DNA of 58,664 bases from Parcubacteria group bacterium (GCA_943349395.1 CALQZH010000002.1:25745-84408); one strand, 5' to 3'; positions 614-35,527 are shown, numbered from the stretch's first letter. A program made the numbers and translations. The notes: generated from the letters alone by a model not told the origin.

Positions 614-630
614 CCGATTCGATTCCCGTC
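614..630 (+). repeat. T-arm-like remnant (CCGATTCGATTCCCGTC), resembling the 3' end of the tRNA-convergent elements
   Basis: It has the same GATTCGATTCC... + perfect hairpin layout as the element 3' ends at 14381-14400, 35465-35486 and 30309-30330(-). It matches the tRNA-Ala T-loop/T-stem CGATTCTCGCT at 8 of 11 positions. Confidence 0.35.
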
Positions 631-641
631 TTATCCTACGC

Positions 642-681
642 ACAAACAAAGAACGCTCCCGTGGGAGCGTTCTTTGTTTGT
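642..681. terminator. perfect 19-bp hairpin (acaaacaaagaacgctccc-gtg-gggagcgttctttgtttgt)
   Basis: Read directly from the sequence. It has the same A/T-flanked GC-core design as the hairpins that follow tRNA-Ser, Ile, Leu and Gly. No clean T-run follows on either strand. Confidence 0.5.
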
Positions 682-1000
682 GGACTGCGTACGCATCCAG
701 TGGAACCAGATTATCCAAGAATTACGGCAGTGGCAACAGCTTAATCTCGACGTAAAGCTTGCTTTAGCTGTTTAAATAATCGCCCTACTACCCCGCTCAC
801 TATATTTTTCCTAGACCTATTGGAACCAACTAATAACTAAAAATTTGAAAGTGGGGGAAAATATCGTCGTTATCGTTTCTCCATATTTCCATAACGGAAA
901 AATAAAATATCGGAAGTTATAAGAAATCTTCGTTGCGTTGTGGTTTCCGTTTTAGTTTTTATGTTATGATTGAGTTATATGTTATTATGATCATAATTTT

Positions 1001-3061
1001 ATGAAAATCAGCATTATTATAAGCGGATTATTAGGAGCTATTGTTTTGATAATTATCGGAGGAATAATATTTTTCAAACCAGAGGTCATTCAAAAACCCC
1101 TGAATGCTTATTTTCCAAAAGCCGACAGGACATTGAAAATAAGTGAAGCGGAGATGCGAAAGGGAGATGGATACGTATTTAAGACTGCGCTTGAAAAAGG
1201 CGTCGTGAAAATAACCGCCTCAGGATTGAGAATCGGCGGCGATGATTATGAGGCATCGGTTATGATGCCGCATGAAATCGTCTCCTCAACCGTTCCTCAA
1301 TCCCCCTTATTGGATTTTAAAGTGATTAAGAATGCAGGTGTAATTTATGTCCAAGACCCGTATGATACAACCTTTCATCTTTCCCCAACGGGCATTTTTC
1401 AAAAGAAACAGCTTTCTTTTCTCGATTTAGGATTTTCAGATATTGTAAATCTTTTGATTGATAAGGAAAAAGGGCTTGAACTAATCGCCAATCCTGAAGG
1501 ATTTACAGTCTCATTCTCATCGGATGATTTTCCGATTCCTTATTTTCCAGAATTTAAAAAAGCGAAAATTACCCTCATTATTGATAAAAAAACATATCTC
1601 GCAAAAAATCTAAATATAGAATGGCATGAGAACAATAGCGTTGTCGCAAAGCTTTCGGAAACATTTGAGAAGCCGAATAATCCGATCGTGATAAAAAAAC
1701 CAGAAAATATAAACCAGTTCGGTGATTTTTTGGCCCGTGAAAGCGTTTATTTAAGAACGGATGGCGATGGAATATATGATAATACATGGCTTGATTGGGA
1801 AAATAAATATTTTGACTGTCAGAGATGCGTTAATAAATATTGGGATAGTGATGGAGACGGATTAGTTAATATAAAGGAATTCATCTTCAATACGGATCCA
1901 AAAAAGCGAGATTCTGACGGAGATGGTGTAAATGATTATAAAGAGTTATTCGGAAAAACAAATCCAACGAACGACGATAAACTATCACTTAATTATTCGG
2001 AGGCGGCTGATTATCTTTTGTCTGGCGGCGAGCCGACGACAGATACAGGCGTATTGTCATCTAAATTTATAAAGAAAGCATTTGTAAGAGATTCATATGC
2101 GGGAATTGATAACTTGACTATACCAAAAGACGCCAAATCGCTTGTTTTAAGTTTTATTTTGGAGGGTAATGAGGAAGGGTCTACCTACTCAACCTTTTTC
2201 TTTGATGATGCGCTGATATTTAAGGCATCCCCGATAAGCGGACATAAGGTAACAGATCCATTTAATAAAGATTATGTGAGAACGGAAAGTATTCCGATCG
2301 GCCAATTTGCTGGCAAGAAGGTGAGATTTGTTCATATTTTGAATTCTTTTGGCAAACCAGGTGGGCAGGTTATGATATTACTTAATAAATCTTCGGGAAC
2401 TCTTGGTTCTTATATTGAAACCACCTCCAATCAAAAAATTCCACTTATAAAAAGCAAGGCGCAATTACAAGAGGAGATTGCTAACCTTTTTATAAATGAG
2501 CTAGCTAAGGCGTTAAGTCCTCTTTCGCAGCCTATTTCTTTAAATAAGCAATGGCAATTAAGCAAGTCATATAATGAACCAAGGACGGGCGTTTCCTTTC
2601 AATTGCCATCGGAATTCATTCTCGAGCCGTCATCTTTCTCCGGTGAATTCGTTTTTAAAACCAATGCTCCCCAAAAAGGAGTGTGGGAGGTGGTTATAAA
2701 ATTCGACGGATCGGATAAGAGCCCGATTGACGGCCAGACATACATGGATTATCTCAAGACACAAAAAGTTCGGCAGATTGGCCTTCAGTCGTTGCCAGCT
2801 CCTTGGCTGAGCTCAAAACCCGATAAGACTATTGCTGGAAGACAAGTCAAATCACTTACATCCTCAATTGGAGATACTAAGCAATTAGCTGCTGAAAGTG
2901 TTATTGAAATTAGCCCTGTAGCGGTGATGCATGTCATGGTTATTGGTTTCGATGCGTTTGATAAAGTTAGAGCCGCTTCAGGAGGAATGGGCTATAGTGA
3001 CGAATGGTTTAGTAATCTTAAGGACTTAAATGAATTGATAATAAGTAGCATTAAAAATTAA
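1001..3061 (+). CDS. membrane-anchored surface protein with thrombospondin type-3-like Ca-binding repeats
   Basis: 686 aa. The N-terminus has a TM segment (ISIIISGLLGAIVLIIIGGIIFF). DxDxDG repeats are present: WDSDGDGLVNIKEF, DSDGDGVNDYKELF, TNPTNDD. Codon usage is AT-rich like the rest of the island. Confidence 0.75.
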   Translation: MKISIIISGLLGAIVLIIIGGIIFFKPEVIQKPLNAYFPKADRTLKISEAEMRKGDGYVFKTALEKGVVKITASGLRIGGDDYEASVMMPHEIVSSTVPQSPLLDFKVIKNAGVIYVQDPYDTTFHLSPTGIFQKKQLSFLDLGFSDIVNLLIDKEKGLELIANPEGFTVSFSSDDFPIPYFPEFKKAKITLIIDKKTYLAKNLNIEWHENNSVVAKLSETFEKPNNPIVIKKPENINQFGDFLARESVYLRTDGDGIYDNTWLDWENKYFDCQRCVNKYWDSDGDGLVNIKEFIFNTDPKKRDSDGDGVNDYKELFGKTNPTNDDKLSLNYSEAADYLLSGGEPTTDTGVLSSKFIKKAFVRDSYAGIDNLTIPKDAKSLVLSFILEGNEEGSTYSTFFFDDALIFKASPISGHKVTDPFNKDYVRTESIPIGQFAGKKVRFVHILNSFGKPGGQVMILLNKSSGTLGSYIETTSNQKIPLIKSKAQLQEEIANLFINELAKALSPLSQPISLNKQWQLSKSYNEPRTGVSFQLPSEFILEPSSFSGEFVFKTNAPQKGVWEVVIKFDGSDKSPIDGQTYMDYLKTQKVRQIGLQSLPAPWLSSKPDKTIAGRQVKSLTSSIGDTKQLAAESVIEISPVAVMHVMVIGFDAFDKVRAASGGMGYSDEWFSNLKDLNELIISSIKN

Positions 3062-3072
3062 TTCCTACAAAT

Positions 3073-3717
3073 TTGACTAATTCTAATGACGTGCCAATAA
3101 TTAAAGGAGATATGAATAATGAGAATAATCAAATAATATCAGCATCCCAGTCACCGCAAGAGCATTATGTGATGCCGATGAAGCCGGTGAAAACTCGAAT
3201 TGGCATCGCTTTGCATGCTTATTTCCTATCGTTGTGGTTTATCGCTTTGGGAGGTGGTTATGCGTTTTTGAATATCGTATTTCGTGGTTTCGTTTGGGAT
3301 ATTAGCAAAATATGGGATTTTTTCGGTCTTTTTGGTATTTTCAGATTATATAGCGCCTTTTTTTCTGGAAATTCTGATAATATAACCGCTCAAGTTGTTA
3401 TTTTTTATATTTCTGGATTACTTGCCGCTGTGCCAATTTTAATCGTCAGTAAAAAAAGAATTAGCCGGTTATTAGGGGAAAAGCCGGATTTAGTGAATGA
3501 TATCTTTTATCGTCGCGCCGCACGTTCCAGTTTCTGGCTATCATTGGTAATGCTGGTTTTTTTAGTTGTAAGCAGAGTTTTCAGTATTCTCAATCAAGTC
3601 TTGGTTGAAACAAATGGAACCGCTCCGCAGCAGACGGCTAACTTGATCTTTTTAGGTATTCCTTTGGCGTTGATTTTGTATTCTTCTTGGAAGATATACA
3701 AGAAAAGCGCGACATAA
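3073..3717 (+). CDS. multi-pass membrane protein
   Basis: 214 aa with several hydrophobic spans (IGIALHAYFLSLWFIALGGGYAF, VVIFYISGLLAAVPILIV, FWLSLVMLVFLVV, LIFLGIPLALILY). The track start is TTG. An alternative ATG at 3112 follows AAAGGAG. Confidence 0.6.
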   Translation: MTNSNDVPIIKGDMNNENNQIISASQSPQEHYVMPMKPVKTRIGIALHAYFLSLWFIALGGGYAFLNIVFRGFVWDISKIWDFFGLFGIFRLYSAFFSGNSDNITAQVVIFYISGLLAAVPILIVSKKRISRLLGEKPDLVNDIFYRRAARSSFWLSLVMLVFLVVSRVFSILNQVLVETNGTAPQQTANLIFLGIPLALILYSSWKIYKKSAT

Positions 3718-3735
3718 TTTTAGCCTTAAAAGGCC

Positions 3736-4161
3736 TTATCTAAGAAGCGCTAACATCCTCTCCTTTTCCTCCTCCGTCAGCTCAGGGACTGCCGTAACCT
3801 CGTTAATGTTCTTAGATACCTCCGTAAGGCCGTGGTTGGCGCTCAGCATGAGCTTCGCGATAGCCGCATTGTATCTGCCCGCCAAGCCCTCATCGATAAG
3901 ACGGCAATACTGCTCGTTTTTTATGCTTCTCAAAGCGTCGGAAAAGTCGGGGTATCGTTTCGCCCATTCATACAGAGTATCTTTACTGACGTTAAGATAA
4001 CGCGCTAATCCCTCGACTTTCGGAAGATTTACCCGAAGATTCTTGCCGTCCTGTTCGTCGCTGCAAGATCGCAGGTAATTACCAACCTCCTCCAATATGC
4101 TGGGGCTATATAAAGTCGGCCTGCCGAATGATATGTATTTTTGCTTCTGTTGTACTGCCAT
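3736..4161 (-). CDS. phage terminase small-subunit-like HTH protein
   Basis: GRPTLYSPSILEEVGNYL ... EGLARYLNVSKDTLYEWAKRYPDFSDALRSIK ... AIAKLMLSANHG matches the pattern of the terS/gp3-type DNA-binding family. I take the ATG at 4161 rather than the TTG at 4173. Confidence 0.6.
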   Translation of the reverse strand: MAVQQKQKYISFGRPTLYSPSILEEVGNYLRSCSDEQDGKNLRVNLPKVEGLARYLNVSKDTLYEWAKRYPDFSDALRSIKNEQYCRLIDEGLAGRYNAAIAKLMLSANHGLTEVSKNINEVTAVPELTEEEKERMLALLR

Positions 4162-4347
4162 ATTGAATAACAATCGATTCTGCTTTAATTATAGCACTAA
4201 AACATAGTAATTACTTCACAGATCGATTAAAAAGGCCCTAAAATAAGCGAAGAGAAAGTCCCCGCCGGAAGTCGGTTGGGGGACTTGTATGCCGTCTCAC
4301 TTTCTAGTTACTGTATAAAGCTGGTGAAAATGGTAAATTGAGAGCAA

Positions 4348-4611
4348 ATGGATATGAAAATGGATAGTGAGGACGGAAAATCACCAAGAGCATATCATGC
4401 GCAGAAAAAGATTCTTTGCGTTTTAGAAAAAATAAAGGAAGGGTGGGATTTATTACCCGAGGATAGGGACTTACGAAAGCATAGTAGTACTTTTTATCAA
4501 TTAGTGAAAGAATGCGGTTTAGATAATTTTTATCAATTAGAGGATATTTTAGCTATTTTAAAACAGGACGGCCTTATAACAAGGTATGAGATTGATAATG
4601 AAGCCAGATAA
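4348..4611 (+). CDS. hypothetical small protein (island)
   Basis: 87-aa ORF, divergent from the terS-like gene and AT-rich. No motif recognised. Confidence 0.5.
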   Translation: MDMKMDSEDGKSPRAYHAQKKILCVLEKIKEGWDLLPEDRDLRKHSSTFYQLVKECGLDNFYQLEDILAILKQDGLITRYEIDNEAR

Positions 4612-4616
4612 TTAAT

Positions 4617-5192
4617 ATGGGTATGATCCTTACAATTAAACTTCCAAAAGATTTTGAGAAGCGTTATTTGGAATATAAAGCGAAGCTATCAGATAGTTTT
4701 CAAGAGGATGAATTTACGGATCATAAATTTTCTAAAAAATTACCTCGTGGAATACGATGGAATCAATTCATCATAGAATTTTTAGATGATGAAAATGTAT
4801 CAATTACTATTAGAGAGCATAAGAAGCAAAAAGCTAGTTTTATTGATATGAATTTTGAAGATAAGCGTAATGGTAAACCCAATCAACAGTGGTATTTATT
4901 AAAGAAGTTAGCTGATTATGAGGGGGAAATTGATTGGGATACAGCAGGGGCAAATAAAAAGCTTAAAAAATCTATCGGACTCCTTGCCGATGCTTTAAGG
5001 GATTATTTTAGTATGGATAGCGACCCATTTTATCCGTACGAAGAAATTTCTAAGATGAAAAATAAGAGATCTTATAAAACTCGATTTATTATTTTTTGTA
5101 GTCAAGATTATTTAGCTAATCATACCATTCAAAAAAATAACGATAACCTTAAACAAGAAATAGAAGACATATTTAGGGATAATACTTTTTAA
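4617..5192 (+). CDS. hypothetical protein (island)
   Basis: 191-aa ORF starting 5 nt after the previous stop. The terminator at 5210-5233 follows. No motif recognised. Confidence 0.55.
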   Translation: MGMILTIKLPKDFEKRYLEYKAKLSDSFQEDEFTDHKFSKKLPRGIRWNQFIIEFLDDENVSITIREHKKQKASFIDMNFEDKRNGKPNQQWYLLKKLADYEGEIDWDTAGANKKLKKSIGLLADALRDYFSMDSDPFYPYEEISKMKNKRSYKTRFIIFCSQDYLANHTIQKNNDNLKQEIEDIFRDNTF

Positions 5193-5209
5193 AGCATTTT
5201 GTCAGAAAT

Positions 5210-5233
5210 AACCGCCAATAATGGCGGTTTTTG
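5210..5233 (+). terminator. intrinsic terminator
   Basis: AACCGCC-aataat-GGCGGTT followed by TTTGT. Confidence 0.6.
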
Positions 5234-5289
5234 TATTGGTGAATTTTCACCGCTATTTTTTTCAGGGCGGTGATTTTTCGCCATTAAGC

Positions 5290-5565
5290 ATGAAAGCCAT
5301 GCAAGTAAAGAATGAAATTTTAAAAACTTCTGACTTTGAAAGGATATCTGACTTAGATTTAGTAGTTGTTGCCTCACTCTCATTTTCTATAGAGGCGATC
5401 GATCGCGACCCAAAGGAATATCCTCGGGTCGTTTTCCTGTTCAAAAAGACGCCGGAATTGGAAGTTCTTATCCAAGCGTATTGGAACGGCCAGCTTTCGT
5501 GCGAGCCGCAGGCGTTATTCGGTCAGCTCCGGCGGATAAAGTCGAGAATTTACAACAATCAATGA
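5290..5565 (+). CDS. DUF5659-like protein
   Basis: SDLDLVVVASLSFSIEAIDRDPKEYPRVVFLFKKTPELEVLIQAYWNGQLSCEPQALFGQLRRIKSRIY fits the DUF5659 pattern seen in phage and mobile-element proteins. I take the ATG at 5290 inside the longer track ORF. Confidence 0.55.
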   Translation: MKAMQVKNEILKTSDFERISDLDLVVVASLSFSIEAIDRDPKEYPRVVFLFKKTPELEVLIQAYWNGQLSCEPQALFGQLRRIKSRIYNNQ

Positions 5566-5577
5566 AGGATATTTATC

Positions 5578-5727
5578 ATGCTTACGATCGAGCGCGTACG
5601 ACAATTACTGAACGATCCGGCCATTACGGACGAGACGGCGGAAGATATCCGCGACGGATTCCGCGCGCTCATCGAAGACATAATTTTCCCCGCATGGCTC
5701 GAAACAAATAAACACAAACATGAATAA
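5578..5727 (+). CDS. small hypothetical protein (49 aa), translationally coupled
   Basis: MLTIERVRQLLNDPAITDETAEDIRDGFRALIEDIIFPAWLETNKHKHE. It is below the track's size cutoff. Its stop overlaps the next start (ATGAATAA). Confidence 0.4.
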   Translation: MLTIERVRQLLNDPAITDETAEDIRDGFRALIEDIIFPAWLETNKHKHE

Positions 5728-5917
5728 CAAATCATTCGCCGAAGATATTGAGTTCTTGGAGCTTTTGCGCGGGGCTTTGCGTATTGCATATGGTATGGAT
5801 TTTTCAATTAAACAGATACAAGAAGCGCATCTCATTGCCGAGCTTACCGCCGCCATTTTTCAGGATTCCTTGGATAAGATCTATAAGAAAAAATACGGCG
5901 GCCAAACATCAATATGA
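5720..5917 (+). CDS. small hypothetical protein (65 aa)
   Basis: Its start overlaps the upstream stop, and its stop overlaps the PrimPol start (ATGA). Confidence 0.5.
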   Translation: MNNKSFAEDIEFLELLRGALRIAYGMDFSIKQIQEAHLIAELTAAIFQDSLDKIYKKKYGGQTSI

Positions 5918-8187
5918 ATATCCAAGATTTAAAAACGAATCTCGACTGGGCCTTATATTACCGCAGCATCGGTTGGAGTCCTATTCCCGTTAAGCTACGG
6001 GACAAGACGGCCCTTGTCCCATGGAAGCAATACCAGACCGAGATCGCGAGCGAGGAGCAGATACGGGAATGGTGGACAAAGTACCCCGATGCCAATATCG
6101 GAATCGTTACGGGCAAAGTGTCCGGCATTGCGGTGGTCGATATCGAAAAGGGGGGCGATACGAAGGGCTTGCTGCCGACTGTCATGGCCAATACCGGCGG
6201 CGGTGGCTTCCATTTCTTTTACAAGTATCCGAACGCGGGCATTCAAAATGCAGTGAGGATTCGAGAGAAAACCGACATACGGGGCGACAGGGGTTATGCG
6301 GTCGTTGCCCCGTCAGTGCATAAATCCGGCAAGCGTTACTCATGGGCGGTCGCCCCCGAAGAAGCCACGCTCGCGGAATTCCCGCAGTGGATTCTTAAGC
6401 AGGCTACTGATCATCATAAGGAAAAAACCGATTGGAATGCGTTTTTAGGAACCCAAAATTTGGAGGGTACGAGACACCAACAGGCGACCATGCTCGTTGG
6501 CAAGCTTTTGCATGAAATATCGAGCGATATGTGGGATGCCGTCGGTTTGCCGGCATTGCATGCTTGGAATGGTTCTAAAAATATCCCGCCGCTTCCGGAT
6601 AAGGAACTTATGACGATATGGGAGGATATAAAGAAAGCCGAGTTTGAGCGTAGGGTGCGTGATGAAGAAAGCCCCTCAAGACGGACTCCAAATAATCAGG
6701 CAGTAAGGCTTATAAACCTCATTAAAAAGCAAGAGAAAATAGTTTTCTTTCATAATGATCTTAAAGAACCATTCGTGCAGATAATGGTTGGAGGGCATAT
6801 AGAAATATTGTCATGCAAGGATAGGATGCTGAAGCGATGGCTTGCTAGGATTTTTTGGAATGCATATAAAGACGTTCTTAATAACGAATCATTAAAGACG
6901 GCGATTAATATTATAGAAAGCGAGGCCTGCTTTGATGCGGATCAGCATATTCTATATAACCGTGTTGCGGAACATGACGGGGCTATATGGTATGACCTTG
7001 CAGATCCGGCGTGGCGAGCTGTGAAAATAACACCAGACGGATGGAATGTAGTTACTGATGTTCCGATATTATTCCGGCGGTATCCGCATCAGCAAGCACA
7101 AATAGAGCCAACACAGGGTGGTGATGTAAAAGAATTTTTAAAGCTCGTAAATATCCAAGACGAAGACCATAAGATAGTATTGCTCGTCTGGATCGTATCT
7201 TGTTTTATCCCAGATTTTCCGCACCCCATACCGAACTTTTATGGAGCGCAGGGATCGGCTAAGTCGTTTCTATCCAAGTTTTTACGAAAGCTGATAGATC
7301 CGTCTCGTATTGAGGCGATGAGTTTCCCTAAGGATACGAACGAGCTTGCGCAGGTATTATTCCATCATCATTGCGTTTTCTTTGACAATGTTTCTCATTT
7401 GCCGGATCAGGTGTCCGACGCGCTTTGTAAGGCGGTGACCGGTGATGGATTATCAAGGCGTACGTTATATACCGACGAGGAAGACACGATCTTTTCTTTT
7501 CAGCGATGCCTCGGTATTAATGGCATTAATATTGCGGCCAAGAATCCCGACTTGCTCGAAAGGAGCATTCTTTTTGAGTTGCAGCGAGTGCCACCGAGCC
7601 AAAGAAGGCAGGAGGGTGAGCTATTGGAATGCTTTGAAAATGAACGTCCTAGGATCATGGGGAGTATTTTTGATGCGGTGGCGAAAGCCATGCGCATTAA
7701 GCCTTCCGTGAAGATTAATAATCTTCCGCGCATGGCGGATTTTACCGTATGGGGGTGCGCCATTGCCGAAGCGCTTGGTTATACGCAGGGGCAGTTTCTC
7801 GACGCTTACTATAGGAACATCAAACATCAGAATGCGGAGGTTTTATATGATAGCCCGTTAGCCTGCGCTGTACTTGGTTTTATGGAGACGGTGAATATAT
7901 GGGAAGGCACACCGACGGAATTACTTCAGGAGCTTACGAACGTTGCGCAGGGGCAAAATATTGATTTGGCGCAGGAAAAAGATTTCCCCAAGAAGGCAAA
8001 CGTATTAACTCGCATGTTAAACAAGCTGAAAACTAATTTGGCTAACGAGGGAATAGAATTTAAAAACAGCGCCGAACAAAGAGGGCGAAGAGCATATCTT
8101 CGCAAGATAACGGAAGACGCGGCATCTATTCAGGAGCCACTAAAGGAGCATGAAAACGATGATAACGGTATTTTACCCCTACTTTAG
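5914..8187 (+). CDS. bifunctional primase-polymerase (PrimPol) fused to a P-loop helicase-like domain
   Basis: PrimPol motifs are present: GWSPIPV, ANIGIVTGKVSGIAVVDIE, GGGFHFFYKYP, DIRGDRGYAVVAPSVHKSGKRYSW. The C-terminal half has Walker A (YGAQGSAKS) and a Walker-B-like HHCVFFDNV. Confidence 0.85.
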   Translation: MNIQDLKTNLDWALYYRSIGWSPIPVKLRDKTALVPWKQYQTEIASEEQIREWWTKYPDANIGIVTGKVSGIAVVDIEKGGDTKGLLPTVMANTGGGGFHFFYKYPNAGIQNAVRIREKTDIRGDRGYAVVAPSVHKSGKRYSWAVAPEEATLAEFPQWILKQATDHHKEKTDWNAFLGTQNLEGTRHQQATMLVGKLLHEISSDMWDAVGLPALHAWNGSKNIPPLPDKELMTIWEDIKKAEFERRVRDEESPSRRTPNNQAVRLINLIKKQEKIVFFHNDLKEPFVQIMVGGHIEILSCKDRMLKRWLARIFWNAYKDVLNNESLKTAINIIESEACFDADQHILYNRVAEHDGAIWYDLADPAWRAVKITPDGWNVVTDVPILFRRYPHQQAQIEPTQGGDVKEFLKLVNIQDEDHKIVLLVWIVSCFIPDFPHPIPNFYGAQGSAKSFLSKFLRKLIDPSRIEAMSFPKDTNELAQVLFHHHCVFFDNVSHLPDQVSDALCKAVTGDGLSRRTLYTDEEDTIFSFQRCLGINGINIAAKNPDLLERSILFELQRVPPSQRRQEGELLECFENERPRIMGSIFDAVAKAMRIKPSVKINNLPRMADFTVWGCAIAEALGYTQGQFLDAYYRNIKHQNAEVLYDSPLACAVLGFMETVNIWEGTPTELLQELTNVAQGQNIDLAQEKDFPKKANVLTRMLNKLKTNLANEGIEFKNSAEQRGRRAYLRKITEDAASIQEPLKEHENDDNGILPLL

Positions 8188-8256
8188 GATTATGGACTTG
8201 CATGGTATTATAAAAGCGTTGATCCATAGTCTTAGCGAAACGCCCGAGATTTTTTG

Positions 8257-8298
8257 TTGCATCGCCACCCCAAAGGGGCGGCTATGCCGACGATGCAA
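8257..8298. promoter_or_regulatory. nested palindrome upstream of the recombinase gene
   Basis: TTGCATCG ... CGATGCAA (8257-8264 / 8291-8298) encloses the hairpin GCCaCCCCaaaGGGGcGGC (8264-8282). It lies about 55 nt upstream of the recombinase ATG. Confidence 0.35.
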
Positions 8299-8352
8299 TC
8301 CCTCGGGAATGCGGACTTGGATCAACCTTAGCCGTCCCTTTGGGGTTTTATT

Positions 8353-9903
8353 ATGAAAGGAATTATATACACCAGAGTCTCGAGCGAGGAACAGATTAAG
8401 GGGACTTCGCTCGACGATCAAGAGGCGCGTTGCCGCAAATATTGTGACGATAGCGGCATTGATGTCCTTAAGGTATTCAGGGAAGAAGGCGCGTCGGCAA
8501 AGACCATTGACCGGAAGATATTGCTTGAAGCGATGGAATTCTGCCGGAAGAACAAGGGGAAGATTGGTGCTTTTATTGTATGGAAAGTGGATCGGTTTGC
8601 CCGTAATACGGAAGACCATTTTGCGGTACGCAAAATCCTTACGGACTACGGCGTTACCTTGCGCTCCGTAACGGAACCGATCGGCGATAATCCTGCGGAA
8701 AAGCTCTTTGAAACGATACTTGCCGGCTTCGCCCAGTTCGATAACGCCATCCGCAAGCAACGATGCTCTAATGGCATGCTGGCCCGTTTGCGGCAGGGCA
8801 TTTACCCATGGAAGCCGCCGATCGGCTACGTTGCCCTCGGAGCGAAGAAACGCGGGGAGAAGAAAACGGGGCCGGATCCGATCCACGAAGAGATATTTCC
8901 TATTTTGCAAAAAGGATTGCGTGCCTATGCGGACGGCGTTTTCACTTCTCAAATTGAATTTGCCAAAGGACTTGATACATGGGGCTTGGCGAAAATCACG
9001 GGCAAGAAAACGACCGCGGTGGTCGCGGGCAGATTACTCGGGTGCTATCTGAATTTCTATGCCGGTATATTCATCGATCCCGAAACGGGCGCGGAGATAC
9101 AGGCGCTGCACAAACCGATGCTTACGCGTGAAGAAATATATAAGATCCGGCTCGTCCGATCCGGCAAGACATGTAATAACTTCCGCAGGAACAAGTTTAA
9201 TCCCAATTTCCCGTTACGCAGGACGGCCATGTGCGCCTGTTGCGGCAAATCCCTTACGGGCAGCACCTCGCGTGGTAATGGCGGGCAGTATCCGTATTAT
9301 CATTGCTCGACTAAGGGATGTTCCATGTTCGGCAAGAGCGTAGCTAAGAAGGATATTGAGGAGAACTTTATCCGGCACTTGCAGCAAATTACGCCAAAGG
9401 ATAAATGGCTCGCGGTATTTACGGAGACGGTATTGGACGTATGGGAAGAAAAGGGCAAAAGCTTCGTGCTTGATGCGGAAGCTTACGAAAAACAGCTTAA
9501 TGCGCTCTTGAAGAAGAAAACCGCCATCCGCGATCTCCTTGAAGACGGCACGTACGACAAGGAAACGGGCAAGGAACGCCTCGCGGAGATTGAGAATCAG
9601 GTTATGGCTGCGAAGATATCCCTGAGCGAAGCGCGGATAGAGCAATTCGACATAGAGGGAGCGTTGTCGTACGCGACGAATTTCATAAAAGATCTCGGCA
9701 GGCAGTGGTTTGATCTACCAGCACAGCTCCGTCCGCGGTTTCAAAGATTGGTATTTCCGGCAGGGTTGCCCTATTCGCGTACTTCCGGATTTGGAACCGC
9801 GCAATTAGGGCTTATTTACGAGATAAATCGAACGTCTGAGGGTGATTTATCTCACGTGGTGGACCCAGCGAGAATCGAACTCGCGTCTCCTCATTGCAAA
9901 TGA
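8353..9903 (+). CDS. large serine recombinase (integrase)
   Basis: Resolvase catalytic N-terminus (GIIYTRVSSEEQIKGTSLDDQ), recombinase domain, Zn-ribbon (CACCGKSLTG...YYHCSTKGC) and a coiled-coil region. The last ~15 codons (VVDPARIELASPHCK) are the antisense of tRNA-Ala. Confidence 0.9.
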   Translation: MKGIIYTRVSSEEQIKGTSLDDQEARCRKYCDDSGIDVLKVFREEGASAKTIDRKILLEAMEFCRKNKGKIGAFIVWKVDRFARNTEDHFAVRKILTDYGVTLRSVTEPIGDNPAEKLFETILAGFAQFDNAIRKQRCSNGMLARLRQGIYPWKPPIGYVALGAKKRGEKKTGPDPIHEEIFPILQKGLRAYADGVFTSQIEFAKGLDTWGLAKITGKKTTAVVAGRLLGCYLNFYAGIFIDPETGAEIQALHKPMLTREEIYKIRLVRSGKTCNNFRRNKFNPNFPLRRTAMCACCGKSLTGSTSRGNGGQYPYYHCSTKGCSMFGKSVAKKDIEENFIRHLQQITPKDKWLAVFTETVLDVWEEKGKSFVLDAEAYEKQLNALLKKKTAIRDLLEDGTYDKETGKERLAEIENQVMAAKISLSEARIEQFDIEGALSYATNFIKDLGRQWFDLPAQLRPRFQRLVFPAGLPYSRTSGFGTAQLGLIYEINRTSEGDLSHVVDPARIELASPHCK

Positions 9904-9930
9904 GGTGTTCTGCCATTTAACTACGGGCCC
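9857..9930 (-). tRNA. tRNA-Ala (anticodon UGC), CCA encoded
   Basis: The cloverleaf was folded by hand. Anticodon arm CCTCA-TTTGCAA-TGAGG gives UGC. G3:U70 and A73 are Ala identity elements. T-arm GCGAG-TTCGATT-CTCGC. Confidence 0.9.
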
Positions 9931-13456: not shown

Positions 13457-14272
13457 TGCCCCGCTCTATTTTTTATCTGCTCGCTTTTGCCTCTTAGCGA
13501 GATTTGATATTAAATTAGCATATATGAAAAATTCCCAAAAAGGATCGGGGATTGTTATATCGATAGTGATAATCGCGCTGTTAGTGATTGCAGGGGGCAT
13601 ATATCGCTATTCGCAACGAGATAAAGCTCAAGTGATTGAAGATGCTATCAGCATCGATTCTGATACGAGACAGCTCTTAGGCCCTGAACAGTATAAATAT
13701 AAAGAAGGGAGCAATTCATATCTTGATCTCTCCGCAGAAATTTCGAAATCAGGCGGTCTGAATCTGAAACAGCCGACCACATTCGTTACCTACGAGAATA
13801 AAGACAGGGGAATAGAGTTCTCTGTTCCTTATAATCCTGCATGGGGTTCCGCAAAATACAAAATCGCACCGTACGAATATGAAAAGGGCCTAGTTACTGA
13901 TAAAGGCGCTGATGATGAAAAAATAATCTTCGGTCCAATTCAGCCATGGGAAGGAGGTGGCTTGGCTCGTTTGCAATCCCTATCTTTCATACCTGCGCGC
14001 ACCGCCGACTCCCTTATGGAAAATACTCTTGCTGTTGTGAAAACAGAAAAGAAGAGAATTAATGGATTGGAGGTGGTAGAATTTTCCGGAGGCGAGTTTT
14101 GTGGCTATTCCTATATAGAAATTATTGGGGAAAAATACAACTATATCCTCTCTGATGGTTGTGATAATTCATATAACGCACCCGACAATCCGTCTCCTAT
14201 CGATATGAGATATTTGGAAGGATTAGTCGAAAAAATGAAATTGATCTAAGAAGGGCAAGGTCGGCCATGGTA
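13457..14272 (+). mobile_element. single-gene AT-rich cassette bracketed by the 16-bp direct repeats
   Basis: The composition is clearly lower in GC than the flanks. It holds exactly one ORF and has identical 16-mers at both ends. Confidence 0.45.
13524..14249 (+). CDS. membrane-anchored hypothetical protein (cassette gene)
   Basis: 241 aa with an N-terminal anchor (GIVISIVIIALLVIAGGIY). AT-rich codon usage unlike the neighbours. Confidence 0.7.
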   Translation: MKNSQKGSGIVISIVIIALLVIAGGIYRYSQRDKAQVIEDAISIDSDTRQLLGPEQYKYKEGSNSYLDLSAEISKSGGLNLKQPTTFVTYENKDRGIEFSVPYNPAWGSAKYKIAPYEYEKGLVTDKGADDEKIIFGPIQPWEGGGLARLQSLSFIPARTADSLMENTLAVVKTEKKRINGLEVVEFSGGEFCGYSYIEIIGEKYNYILSDGCDNSYNAPDNPSPIDMRYLEGLVEKMKLI

Positions 14273-14400
14273 GGAAGGATTCGCCTCTCCCTCTCCGCCA
14301 TTCGCCGCCTGGCGGAGGCGGATCGGTCGAGGTCGCTGTTTTCATAGTCGGCGGAACGCCTTCTTGAAAACAGGGGACCTACGGTTCGAATCCTTCTTCG
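14273..14400 (+). repeat. tRNA-convergent structured element, copy a (partner: tRNA-Ser)
   Basis: The 5' GAAGGATTCG pairs with the 3' CGAATCCTTC. The core is CGGTCGAGGTCGCTGTTTTCATAGTCGGCGGAACGCCTTCTTGAAAACAGGGGACCTACGGTTCGAATCC. It is shared with copies c and d2. Confidence 0.65.
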
Positions 14401-14409
14401 GCTCTCATC

Positions 14410-14453
14410 TAATACAAAGAGGGATGGTTCTAGAACCATCCCTCTTTGTATTA
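14410..14453. terminator. bidirectional hairpin between element a and tRNA-Ser
   Basis: taatacaaagagggatggttc/tagaaccatccctctttgtatta, a perfect palindrome ending 2 nt from the tRNA 3' end. Confidence 0.65.
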
Positions 14454-21900: not shown

Positions 21901-21943
21901 GTTTTAAAATAGGACCCGTTATACTCGGGTCCTATTTTAAAAC
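21901..21943. terminator. bidirectional hairpin after tRNA-Ile
   Basis: gttttaaaataggacccg-ttatac-tcgggtcctattttaaaac. Confidence 0.65.
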
Positions 21944-21949
21944 TGTCTA

Positions 21950-22123
21950 GGTACATAGAGGAGGAATCGAACCGCGGGCCGCAGGCTCCGAATAGGAGCC
22001 GAAGGTTCCGAGCCGCATAGGCGGCGAGGGGCGATTCCTTCTTCATTGCTGATTATAAAAATGACATGTCTCGACCGATCTACTAGTGAGTAGAGAGGAA
22101 GAGGCGATTCCTTCTGCGCCCAC
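21950..22123 (-). repeat. tRNA-convergent structured element, copy b (two tandem units; partner: tRNA-Ile)
   Basis: The far end carries a 19-bp direct repeat of the tRNA-Ile 3' end (22105-22123 = 21879-21897). An inner partial repeat lies at 22032-22042. The 40-nt block 21970-22009 is identical to 35339-35378 in reverse complement. Confidence 0.65.
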
Positions 22124-22162
22124 TCTATGGAAAAGAGTCGATTTTTATCATAGTATGAGAGT

Positions 22163-30308: not shown

Positions 30309-30482
30309 GCCTTGCGTGAGAGGAATCGAACCGGATAGGTTCCCTGTTTGTTCAAGAGCGAAGCGATTGACGCACAAACAGCAATGCCGCACCGTAGTGC
30401 GGCCCCCCAAGTTTTCAAGAAGGCCTCGGGCCGACTATGAAAACAGCGACTTCGACCGGAGGGAGAAGCGAGTCCTCTCCTG
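30309..30482 (-). repeat. tRNA-convergent structured element, copy c (partner: tRNA-Leu)
   Basis: A 14-bp direct repeat of the tRNA-Leu 3' end (30469-30482 = 30252-30265). The end-pairing is GAGAGGAATCG (30318-30328) with CGAGTCCTCTC (30469-30479). It has the same core as copies a and d2 plus a second hairpin, CTGTTTGT...ACAAACAG. Confidence 0.65.
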
Positions 30483-30493
30483 TTTCTGATATA

Positions 30494-35184: not shown

Positions 35185-35215
35185 GGGGAGAGTATGCCAT
35201 GGAAAAATGGGTAGA

Positions 35216-35486
35216 GGGAGTCGCCCCTCGCCGCCTCAGGGTAAAAGAAATAGATCGTCGTCATCGCTTCGCTCCTTTCCGACGTGATTTTAAAATTCAA
35301 ACCTCTTCGCTTCGCATATCGGGATAATTTTAAAATCAGGAACCTTCGGCTCCTATTCGGAGCCTGCGGCCCGCGGTTAATGACAGGGGGAGTCGCTTCT
35401 CCCTTCGGTCGAAGTCGCTGTTTTCATAATCGCCCCGCGAGCCTCCTTGAAAATAGGGAGCCTTCGGTTCGACTCCCGCCCGCTTC
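35216..35486 (+). repeat. tRNA-convergent structured element, copy d (units d1 35216-35384 and d2 35385-35486; partner: tRNA-Gly)
   Basis: d2: AGGGGGAGTCG (35385-35395) repeats 35536-35546 of the tRNA-Gly locus. GGGAGTCG pairs with CGACTCCC (35470-35477). The core is shared with copies a and c. d1 shares TCGCCCCTCGCCGCCT and a 40-nt block with copy b. Confidence 0.65.
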
Positions 35487-35527
35487 AAATAATAAAAGCC
35501 GCTCACGAAGAGCGGCTTTTATTATTT
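35487..35527. terminator. bidirectional hairpin between element d and tRNA-Gly
   Basis: aaataataaaagccgctc-acgaa-gagcggcttttattattt. Confidence 0.7.

Follow-up and report, generated by a model that had tools for sequence, protein, structure and literature searches.

How is the end of a recombinase gene to be understood when it lies inside the tRNA gene at which its element is integrated? The question is raised by a stretch of 58,664 nt from a Parcubacteria group bacterium (GCA_943349395.1 CALQZH010000002.1:25745-84408), here called the window, to which all positions refer unless another contig is named. An island flanked by a tRNA-Ala(UGC) gene on one side and a perfect 20-bp hairpin on the other carries an open reading frame (ORF) for a large serine recombinase (LSR) that ends in the antisense of the tRNA. 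The best overall explanation, which we regard as highly probable, is an element integrated at the end of the tRNA-Ala gene with an integrase gene that is split by integration. The structural part of this description, an attachment (att) core within the integrase ORF and a gene divided on integration, is held with even more confidence. The features are collected in Table 1.

An earlier note on this DNA, made from the sequence alone, had proposed a 9.2-kb element between the hairpin and the tRNA-Ala gene. The element was recovered, and its boundaries could be refined from 682-9856 to 686-9864. The hairpin is perfect as described, but its arms measure 20 bp at 641-682 and not 19 bp at 642-681. 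The G+C content (GC) is about 60% in the flanks and the host, and the island has the two compositional parts that had been noticed, with 36-41% at 1-6 kb and 47-51% at 6-10 kb; by gene, the cargo has 30-38%, the gene for the primase/polymerase Prim-Pol 47% and the integrase gene, int, 51%.

Excising 686-9864 in silico gives ...CTGGGTCCACAAACAAAGAACGCTCCC..., an intact tRNA-Ala with the hairpin directly after it. The reconstructed empty site, ...GGGTCCACAAACAAAGAACGCTCCC..., fits the layout of tRNA, C, AAA or ACA and hairpin found at other tRNA loci; at the tRNA-Ser, Ile, Leu and Gly genes of the same genome the hairpin abuts the tRNA end, as had been stated. An insertion point between the 3' end of tRNA-Ala and its terminator hairpin is supported, and we infer that the hairpin is the native terminator of this tRNA and the host (B) arm of attL. 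It was not called by the terminator scan because the 2-nt loop and the T run within the stem fall outside the rules of the scan.

The two junctions have only the 6 bp GTGGAC in common, which fits the expectation for a serine integrase. The best local alignment of the island ends was no better than that of shuffled controls and no significant direct or inverted repeat was found between them, in agreement with the earlier observation that a long direct repeat is lacking. On the tRNA strand the attR core takes in the discriminator, C74 and the final bases of the acceptor stem. The crossover is placed within, or immediately beside, codon 503 (GTG) of the integrase, at the discriminator/C74 position of the tRNA. 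The predicted attB junction is ...GGGAGCGTTCTTTGTTTGTGGACCCAGCGAGAATCGAACTCGCG... and the predicted attP junction ...GGGTGATTTATCTCACGTGGTGGACTGCGTACGCATCCAGTGGAACCAG.... A search of the 58-kb window with a profile of 21 attP sites, either natural or rebuilt, gave two significant matches and no more, a P' half at 671-743 (E 1e-14) and a P half at 9832-9877 (E 2.5e-4); an att pair elsewhere in the window, a possibility raised before, was not among its matches.

Two other positions were tried for the crossover. The sequence CCAG is common to 697-700 and 9865-9868; a crossover there was rejected because it would break the acceptor stem of the restored tRNA and be at odds with the homology that 686-775 shows to relatives' tails. 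A perfect palindrome, TGCGTACGCA (686-695), was rejected as the crossover centre because attR is without it.

Integrase codons 502-503 (xTG GTG; 9856-9861 in the window, and at the homologous loci) read CACCA on the tRNA strand, and the element end therefore gives the target tRNA an encoded CCA. An encoded CCA is missing from most other tRNA genes in the window. The body of the tRNA-Ala is host-derived, with the CCA completed by the element end.

The integrase ORF had been said to run about 47 nt into the tRNA antisense, and the overlap is exactly 47 nt (9857-9903). Residues 505-516 (PARIELASPHCK, 12 codons) are encoded by the antisense of tRNA-Ala, and the ORF ends in ...VVDPARIELASPHCK (in a longer stretch, ...HVVDPARIELASPHCK). 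The C-terminus of the integrase, the attachment site and the tRNA's 3' end overlap as claimed, codons 503-504 being both the att core and the tRNA end.

The remainder of the gene is found at the left end of the island. Read in frame with the core, the sequence from 680 to 775 is GTG GAC TGC GTA CGC ATC CAG TGG AAC CAG ... TAA, translated as VD CVRIQWNQIIQELRQWQQLNLDVKLALAV, in which the displaced tail of 29 aa begins CVRIQWNQIIQELRQWQQL.... Joining 9864 to 686 gives a protein of 533 aa that is 56% identical overall to the intact homologue P0063, with no end gaps and the same last residue; within the tail (686-775) 20 of 29 residues are identical. The earlier proposal that excision would change the C-terminus of the recombinase is supported by this reading, because an in-frame alternative tail of 29 aa, homologous to the tails of intact relatives, is encoded at the left end.

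The 516-aa ORF matches the resolvase catalytic domain PF00239 (E 3e-32), the recombinase zinc ribbon PF13408 (E 7e-7) and the PHROG integrase family phrog_95, and the Pfam scan gave no match to PF07508. Positions R8, S10, Q23, D80, R81 and R84 are invariant among 38 homologues; in Bxb1 numbering the catalytic pocket comprises R8, S10, Q22, D81, R82 and R85 (PMC12884075). In a PDB sequence search 3guv and TP901-1 (3bvp) were found, by the catalytic domain only. The AlphaFold2 model, made for the intact homologue P0016, has a mean predicted local distance difference test (pLDDT) of 83. It consists of a catalytic domain, a recombinase domain, a zinc ribbon, a coiled coil with helices at 349-428 and an extra C-terminal domain (433-493), followed by a linker (498-510, pLDDT <50) and a terminal helix (509-526, pLDDT about 65). 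The translated att core falls within this low-confidence linker, between the last folded domain and the terminal helix. The top Foldseek matches of the model are full-length serine integrase complexes (9dxh, Bxb1 9iu2, phiC31 9rah and 4kis), and LI integrase is among the matched enzymes. Judged by its catalytic features, its modelled C-terminal domains and its short att sites, the enzyme belongs to the large serine recombinases.

A scan for the integrase family with one genome per species gave 80 loci, mostly in assemblies of Patescibacteria (candidate phyla radiation, CPR), and codon 503 could be located in 74. The C-termini of 37 aligned homologues show two endings after a conserved ...S-x-V-V. 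One, D-P-x-G-I-E-P and similar, results from reading a tRNA T-arm in antisense; the second kind is a tail that is conserved, D-x5-W-N-Q-x3-E-L-x2-W-x2-L, of the same type as that at the left end of the island. A convergent tRNA gene has its 3' end 0-2 nt from the first base of codon 503 at 49 of the 74 loci (Ala 28, Glu 6, Met 5, Lys 4, Arg 3, Ile 2 and Tyr 1), and at one further locus the target is a transfer-messenger RNA (tmRNA) gene (L027 11511-11895). Among close relatives, 45-75% identical, the targets comprise tmRNA and no fewer than seven types of tRNA, all in the same register. Several more loci reach the contig edge inside a G-[IFL]-E-P tail, and 16 of the 74 have an intact tail and no adjoining tRNA. 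The tRNA-derived tails vary from 3 to more than 30 residues in length. One relative, L002, has an integrase 90% identical to that of the window at the same tRNA-Ala, with different cargo.

A displaced tail is present in six more loci (L005, L010, L027, L049, L051 and L058), 7.4-11.3 kb upstream and on the same strand. The attL and attR sequences of these six elements have only 3-9 bases in common, around a GTG or GTA codon, and their comparison in register narrowed the crossover to codon 503 plus or minus one base. According to the earlier note, homologous recombinases extending through the tRNA antisense would make the overlap coincidental. Most homologues do extend in this way, yet the overlap is not thereby coincidental, because the tails differ by tRNA target. 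Since the tails vary with the tRNA, and are different and conserved where a tRNA is absent, the overlap reflects the position of the att site and not a conserved feature of the protein.

In the 21 attP sequences the positions W+7, E+13, L+14, W+17 and L+20 are invariant or nearly so as amino acids while synonymous codons vary, L+14 being encoded by six different codons. The displaced tail of the island keeps every conserved tail position, and displaced copies elsewhere follow the pattern as well. The conservation of amino acids with variable synonymous codons indicates selection on the protein and not on the DNA site alone. The integrase family is large, found mostly in Patescibacteria and apparently undescribed.

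Some relatives show additional arrangements around the integrase. After the integrase, some with an intact tail have 1-4 extra half-att copies consisting of the core and the P' arm (L045/L046 11460-16480; L043 17003-17062; L044 11659-11724). In L045 four cassettes of 1.1-1.5 kb are delimited by the extra half-sites, and in front of several of these cassettes there is a copy of the ORF for the small partner protein described below; this arrangement recalls an integron-style array. The short contigs L138 and L139, which contain intact-tail homologues, are not circular and carry genes of conjugative-element type (ArdC, ParB and a DnaG-like primase). In L011 (11513 onwards) and L018 (6194 onwards), from two candidate phyla, the ORF continues past codon 503 into the same sequence, VVIIPKSSD[LS]FPAE.RMRHARSAWWLETKSYAR. 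No tRNA and no Rfam match was found in this read-through sequence, which may be another conserved target. LOOT RNA (RF03000) occurs in two related islands (L005 5488-5607; L027 8051-8175) and is not found in the island of the window.

Contigs of other origin contain the same island. Contig L001/L140 (assembly ERZ27280317, identical integrase) is 99.99% identical to the window from base 680 rightwards over 19 kb and unrelated to it left of 680. Contig L141 of a second assembly has the same alternative left flank as L140 and is likewise identical to the window from base 680. The Logan contig L142 crosses the window-type junction at 100% identity. A further Logan contig, L144, contains the left gene and the hairpin and ends at base 709, that is 679+30; such an end of a k=31 unitig fits two paths merging at 679|680, and the sequence break thus coincides with the predicted core to the base. 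When homologues of the protein encoded in the left flank were sought, the window-type junction was met once more, in L144, together with relatives (L145-L147) in which the local gene order is not kept. The second left flank (L140 1-6041; L141 1-3618) is of mixed composition and encodes an HtrA-like protease, a DUF4383 protein and a split FAD_binding_4 oxidase. Its junction with the island falls on exactly the base at which the hairpin flank joins, and on the right only the tRNA-Ala flank was seen. A second copy of the island, a strain difference and a recombinase-mediated rearrangement are possible origins of this flank.

Table 1. Features of the island and its ends in the window (aa, amino acids; P', arm of the attP site)
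Feature	Position	Strand	Remarks
T-arm-like string TTCGATTCC (9 nt)	618-626, within 614-630	+	left of hairpin; status uncertain
Perfect hairpin	641-682; arms 641-660 and 663-682	.	20 nt each, 100% complementary, 2-nt loop
attL core GTGGAC	680-685	+	left crossover region; sole identity with attR
Integrated element	686-9864 (equivalently 680-9858)	none	9,179 bp; GC 30-51% vs about 60% in host
Displaced 3' end of integrase gene: P' arm, 29 codons CVRIQWNQIIQELRQWQQLNLDVKLALAV and stop	686-775	+	in frame with core; att profile; homology
Cargo, 686 aa, GC 38%	1001-3061	+	N-terminal hydrophobic segment (read from sequence); weak match to bacterial TSP3 repeat
Cargo, 214 aa, GC 37%	3073-3717	+	hydrophobic stretches (read from sequence), suggesting a membrane protein
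gp3 small terminase subunit-like (terS-like) protein	3736-4173	-	PF16677 E 3e-19; terminase matches phrog_309 and phrog_3064
Acidic 49-aa protein MLTIERVRQLLNDPAITDETAEDIRDGF..., integrase partner	5578-5727	+	conserved neighbour of integrase family
Prim-Pol primase/polymerase, 757 aa, replication module	5914-8187	+	PF09250 E 3e-27; phrog_1156 E 9e-29
LSR, integrated-state ORF, 516 aa	8353-9903	+	residues 1-504 element-encoded up to common core
tRNA-Ala(UGC), anticodon tgc, integration target	9857-9930	-	ARAGORN and Rfam
attR core GTGGAC = codons V503-D504	9859-9864	+	P-arm match of att profile 9832-9877

In addition to the genes in Table 1 the island encodes a DUF5659 protein. The cargo proteins had no match in the defence-system library. 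No tyrosine integrase was found among the domain and PHROG matches of the island, and no capsid or helper-interference genes were identified on it. The acidic 49-aa protein belongs to no Pfam family. A homologue of it is encoded on the int strand, 0.2-5 kb upstream of int, at 55 of the 59 loci with enough upstream DNA; from this conserved position it is a candidate directionality factor or regulator.

A mechanism can be proposed from this arrangement. In the circular element the 533-aa integrase would be rebuilt, with the tail W-N-Q-x3-E-L-x2-W-x2-L, and would recombine attP with the tRNA end. Integration leaves residues 1-504 at the tRNA, where the ORF continues through 12 tRNA-antisense codons, and takes the native 29-codon tail to the other end of the element, 9.2 kb away; the resident gene would then give an enzyme of 516 aa. 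Since selection acts on the tail as protein, it is assumed that the full-length form, for which the circular element is the only source, is the one selected for integration. As a tentative extension, the integrase gene might serve as a sensor of the state of the element: the full-length, integration-competent form would come from the circle only, the swap would alter activity, stability or directionality, and the family would represent a natural series retargeted toward tRNA and tmRNA ends. An aid to directionality or expression control, with the 49-aa partner as the directionality factor, would be the most likely use of the tail swap, a suggestion made with similar reserve.

Several observations weigh against a mobile element that switches its own enzyme. 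The search for an empty site or a circular junction suggested in the earlier note recovered neither from the metagenome scans or viral contigs. A scan of metagenome contigs with the YceI-like neighbour gave no relatives and no empty attB, the exact 23-mer across the hairpin and the core had no match in the metagenome scan and gave no empty site, the circular attP junction was not found, and the viral contig collection has no close relative of the integrase, the best full-length match being 31% identical. Right-flank contigs from three other assemblies, with an identical YceI, all carry attR and end 21-81 nt inside int, so that attR is present in 4 of 4 assemblies examined. Two left flanks and one right flank are not accounted for by a simple single insertion. 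The scan for dyad symmetry around the core gave no clear centre, and the tail helix of P0016 is modelled with moderate confidence only (pLDDT about 65). The 16 intact-tail homologues are found in long contigs of up to 788 kb, which are chromosomal and include non-CPR assemblies; an intact tail is therefore no proof of the excised state. The near-universal 49-aa partner could also give directionality alone, with the tail swap as a by-product. Being a conventional route to excision control, it weakens the case for the tail swap alone setting the direction.

Under one alternative the architecture is as described and the tail exchange has no function, the att site lying close to the 3' end of int, in a linker that tolerates change, and a separate directionality factor, for example the 49-aa protein, controlling the reaction. 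The small partner at 55 of 59 loci, the position of all catalytic and DNA-binding domains upstream of the core in the model and the arbitrary tRNA-derived tails of 3 to more than 30 residues all agree with it, and its probability comes close to an even chance without reaching it. It does not explain why the amino acids of the tail are kept under free synonymous change, also in the displaced copies, which indicates that the tail matters in at least one state, or why more than 50 loci, with no fewer than seven types of tRNA as targets, have retained the split layout. A different view takes the island to be a fixed remnant that no longer excises and the split integrase to be a decaying gene. Against this, no catalytic residue is missing from the unbroken int ORF, none of the conserved positions has been lost from the displaced tail, different samples contain identical copies of the island but in two left contexts, and the 90% identical integrase of L002 is found at the same site with different cargo; even with attR in 4 of 4 assemblies examined and neither an empty site nor a circle detected, decay appears unlikely.

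The remaining alternatives concern the junctions themselves. If the join between hairpin and island were a chimera of the assembly, the island would in truth adjoin the FAD-oxidase flank on its left, and no unit of tRNA and hairpin would have been split. Two MEGAHIT contigs from two assemblies do join the FAD-type flank to the island and the tRNA-Ala side, but the hairpin-type junction is present in two independent Logan contigs from two runs (L142 across it, L144 to 30 nt past it), only the hairpin flank rebuilds the usual tRNA-hairpin layout of the host, and an exact repeat of 9.2 kb would permit chimeric paths either way; a chimera is accordingly judged improbable. That the overlap of ORF and tRNA is coincidental, with the boundaries elsewhere, for example at a tRNA-fragment duplication of the tyrosine-integrase kind, is hardly credible. 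Prior expectation speaks for it, in that most tRNA-integrated islands use tyrosine integrases according to the Islander paper (PMC4383910), and this is set against the absence of a tRNA-fragment repeat and of a tyrosine integrase, the fixed register of the tRNA end with codon 503 at 49 loci, the contig breakpoint at the core and the lack of a second att pair in the window by the att profile. The reading of the island as an element whose integrase gene is split at the end of tRNA-Ala is preferred to all of these.

The earlier note took the split unit to consist of a small element, the hairpin and the tRNA. The split between tRNA and hairpin stands, whereas the element part is not supported, since a blastn-short search with the four small elements at other tRNA genes gave no match at 450-640, where their conserved core is likewise not matched; of such an element only the 9-nt TTCGATTCC is present. 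The sequence TTCGANTCC, related to the T-arm-like string left of the hairpin, is matched 11 times in the window against 4.7 expected, and the other ten matches lie in or beside tRNA genes. In the relative L147 conservation reaches to about 602, over what is there the region upstream of the left gene, and does not extend to 603-640. As far as sequence comparison can tell, the string at 614-630 is no detectable copy of the small tRNA-flanking elements.

These elements, small and structured, face tRNA-Ser, Ile, Leu and Gly in convergent orientation (14262-14410 on the plus strand, 21935-22130 and 30310-30485 on the minus strand, 35215-35490 on the plus strand). The 5' arm perfectly complements 10-19 nt in the 3' part of the adjoining tRNA and the 3' arm copies its T-loop (GGTTCGAnTCC). 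After a common core, GGTCGARGTCGCTGTTTTCATAGTC, comes a perfect hairpin, which could act as a terminator for both strands. The elements fold as four-way junctions (z about -5) and have no Rfam match even at E<=1. The element at tRNA-Ser is also present in L002 (12684-12800), where its arms co-vary with the T-arm of that tRNA. The small elements could be what is left, in miniature and flanked by att sequences, of integrated elements, or they could represent an undescribed RNA. The segment 10700-14240, which lies between the YceI-like gene and tRNA-Ser, contains several small ORFs and a gene for an ABC transporter, and its GC dips at 13-14 kb. It is absent from L002, in which the YceI-like gene is 165 nt from tRNA-Ser, and may be a second insertion.

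In the large serine integrases of phages and integrative elements, such as Bxb1, phiC31, Listeria A118 / LI integrase and TP901-1, attP is not part of the gene for the integrase, and one and the same enzyme serves both states. The enzyme of the window is like these in domain order, catalytic pocket and a short att site without a long repeat. It differs from them in having the core inside codons 503-504 and an extra C-terminal domain, linker and tail, and in its targets, which are the 3' ends of tRNA and tmRNA genes. The position of the att site in the integrase's own 3' coding region ties two isoforms of the enzyme to the state of the element, in a class of enzymes that is prized for simply controlled direction. 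The many tRNA gene ends matched at a fixed register bear on the question of how integrases change target specificity. Most of the family is without a match to PF07508, on which large LSR surveys were filtered (PMC10083194; PMC12884075), and the surveys therefore probably missed it. Its members are abundant in Patescibacteria, a group about whose mobile elements little is known.

In the integration-dependent immunity of mycobacteriophages attP lies inside the repressor gene, and integration by a tyrosine integrase changes the C-terminus of the protein. The logic is the same here, but the protein altered is the integrase itself and not a repressor. With the tycheposons and the satellites of the phage-inducible chromosomal island (PICI) type the island has in common a size of about 10 kb, linkage to a tRNA, a site-specific integrase, a primase/polymerase, a terS-like gene and variable cargo. 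Tycheposons have such modules, and 27 of 937 carry an LSR (preprint 10.1101/2020.12.28.424599); most tycheposons use tyrosine recombinases. The island differs in using an LSR, and of the packaging-redirection genes only the gp3/terS-like protein was found.

In the literature searched there was no description of serine integrases with the att site inside their own ORF, a layout found there only for archaeal tyrosine integrases. The SSV-type 'suicidal' (type I) tyrosine integrases of archaeal viruses and plasmids have attP in the integrase ORF and target tRNA genes; integration leaves one part of the gene at each end of the element, and the protein includes the translated att site (PMC7253208). 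This layout has been called confined to archaea to date, and integration leaves two inactive pseudogenes (PMC7253208). The closest analogue of the present system is the SSV-type suicidal integrases, with which it has in common an attP inside the integrase ORF, tRNA targets and a gene partitioned on integration. It is an analogue and not a member of that group: the enzyme is a serine recombinase and bacterial, mostly from Patescibacteria, and only the last 29 residues are displaced, so that the integrated ORF keeps all domains and does not become two pseudogenes. If the integrase gene does sense the state of the element, it would constitute a built-in switch like that of the archaeal suicidal integrases, one that is not lethal to the gene and that possibly acts together with the 49-aa partner.

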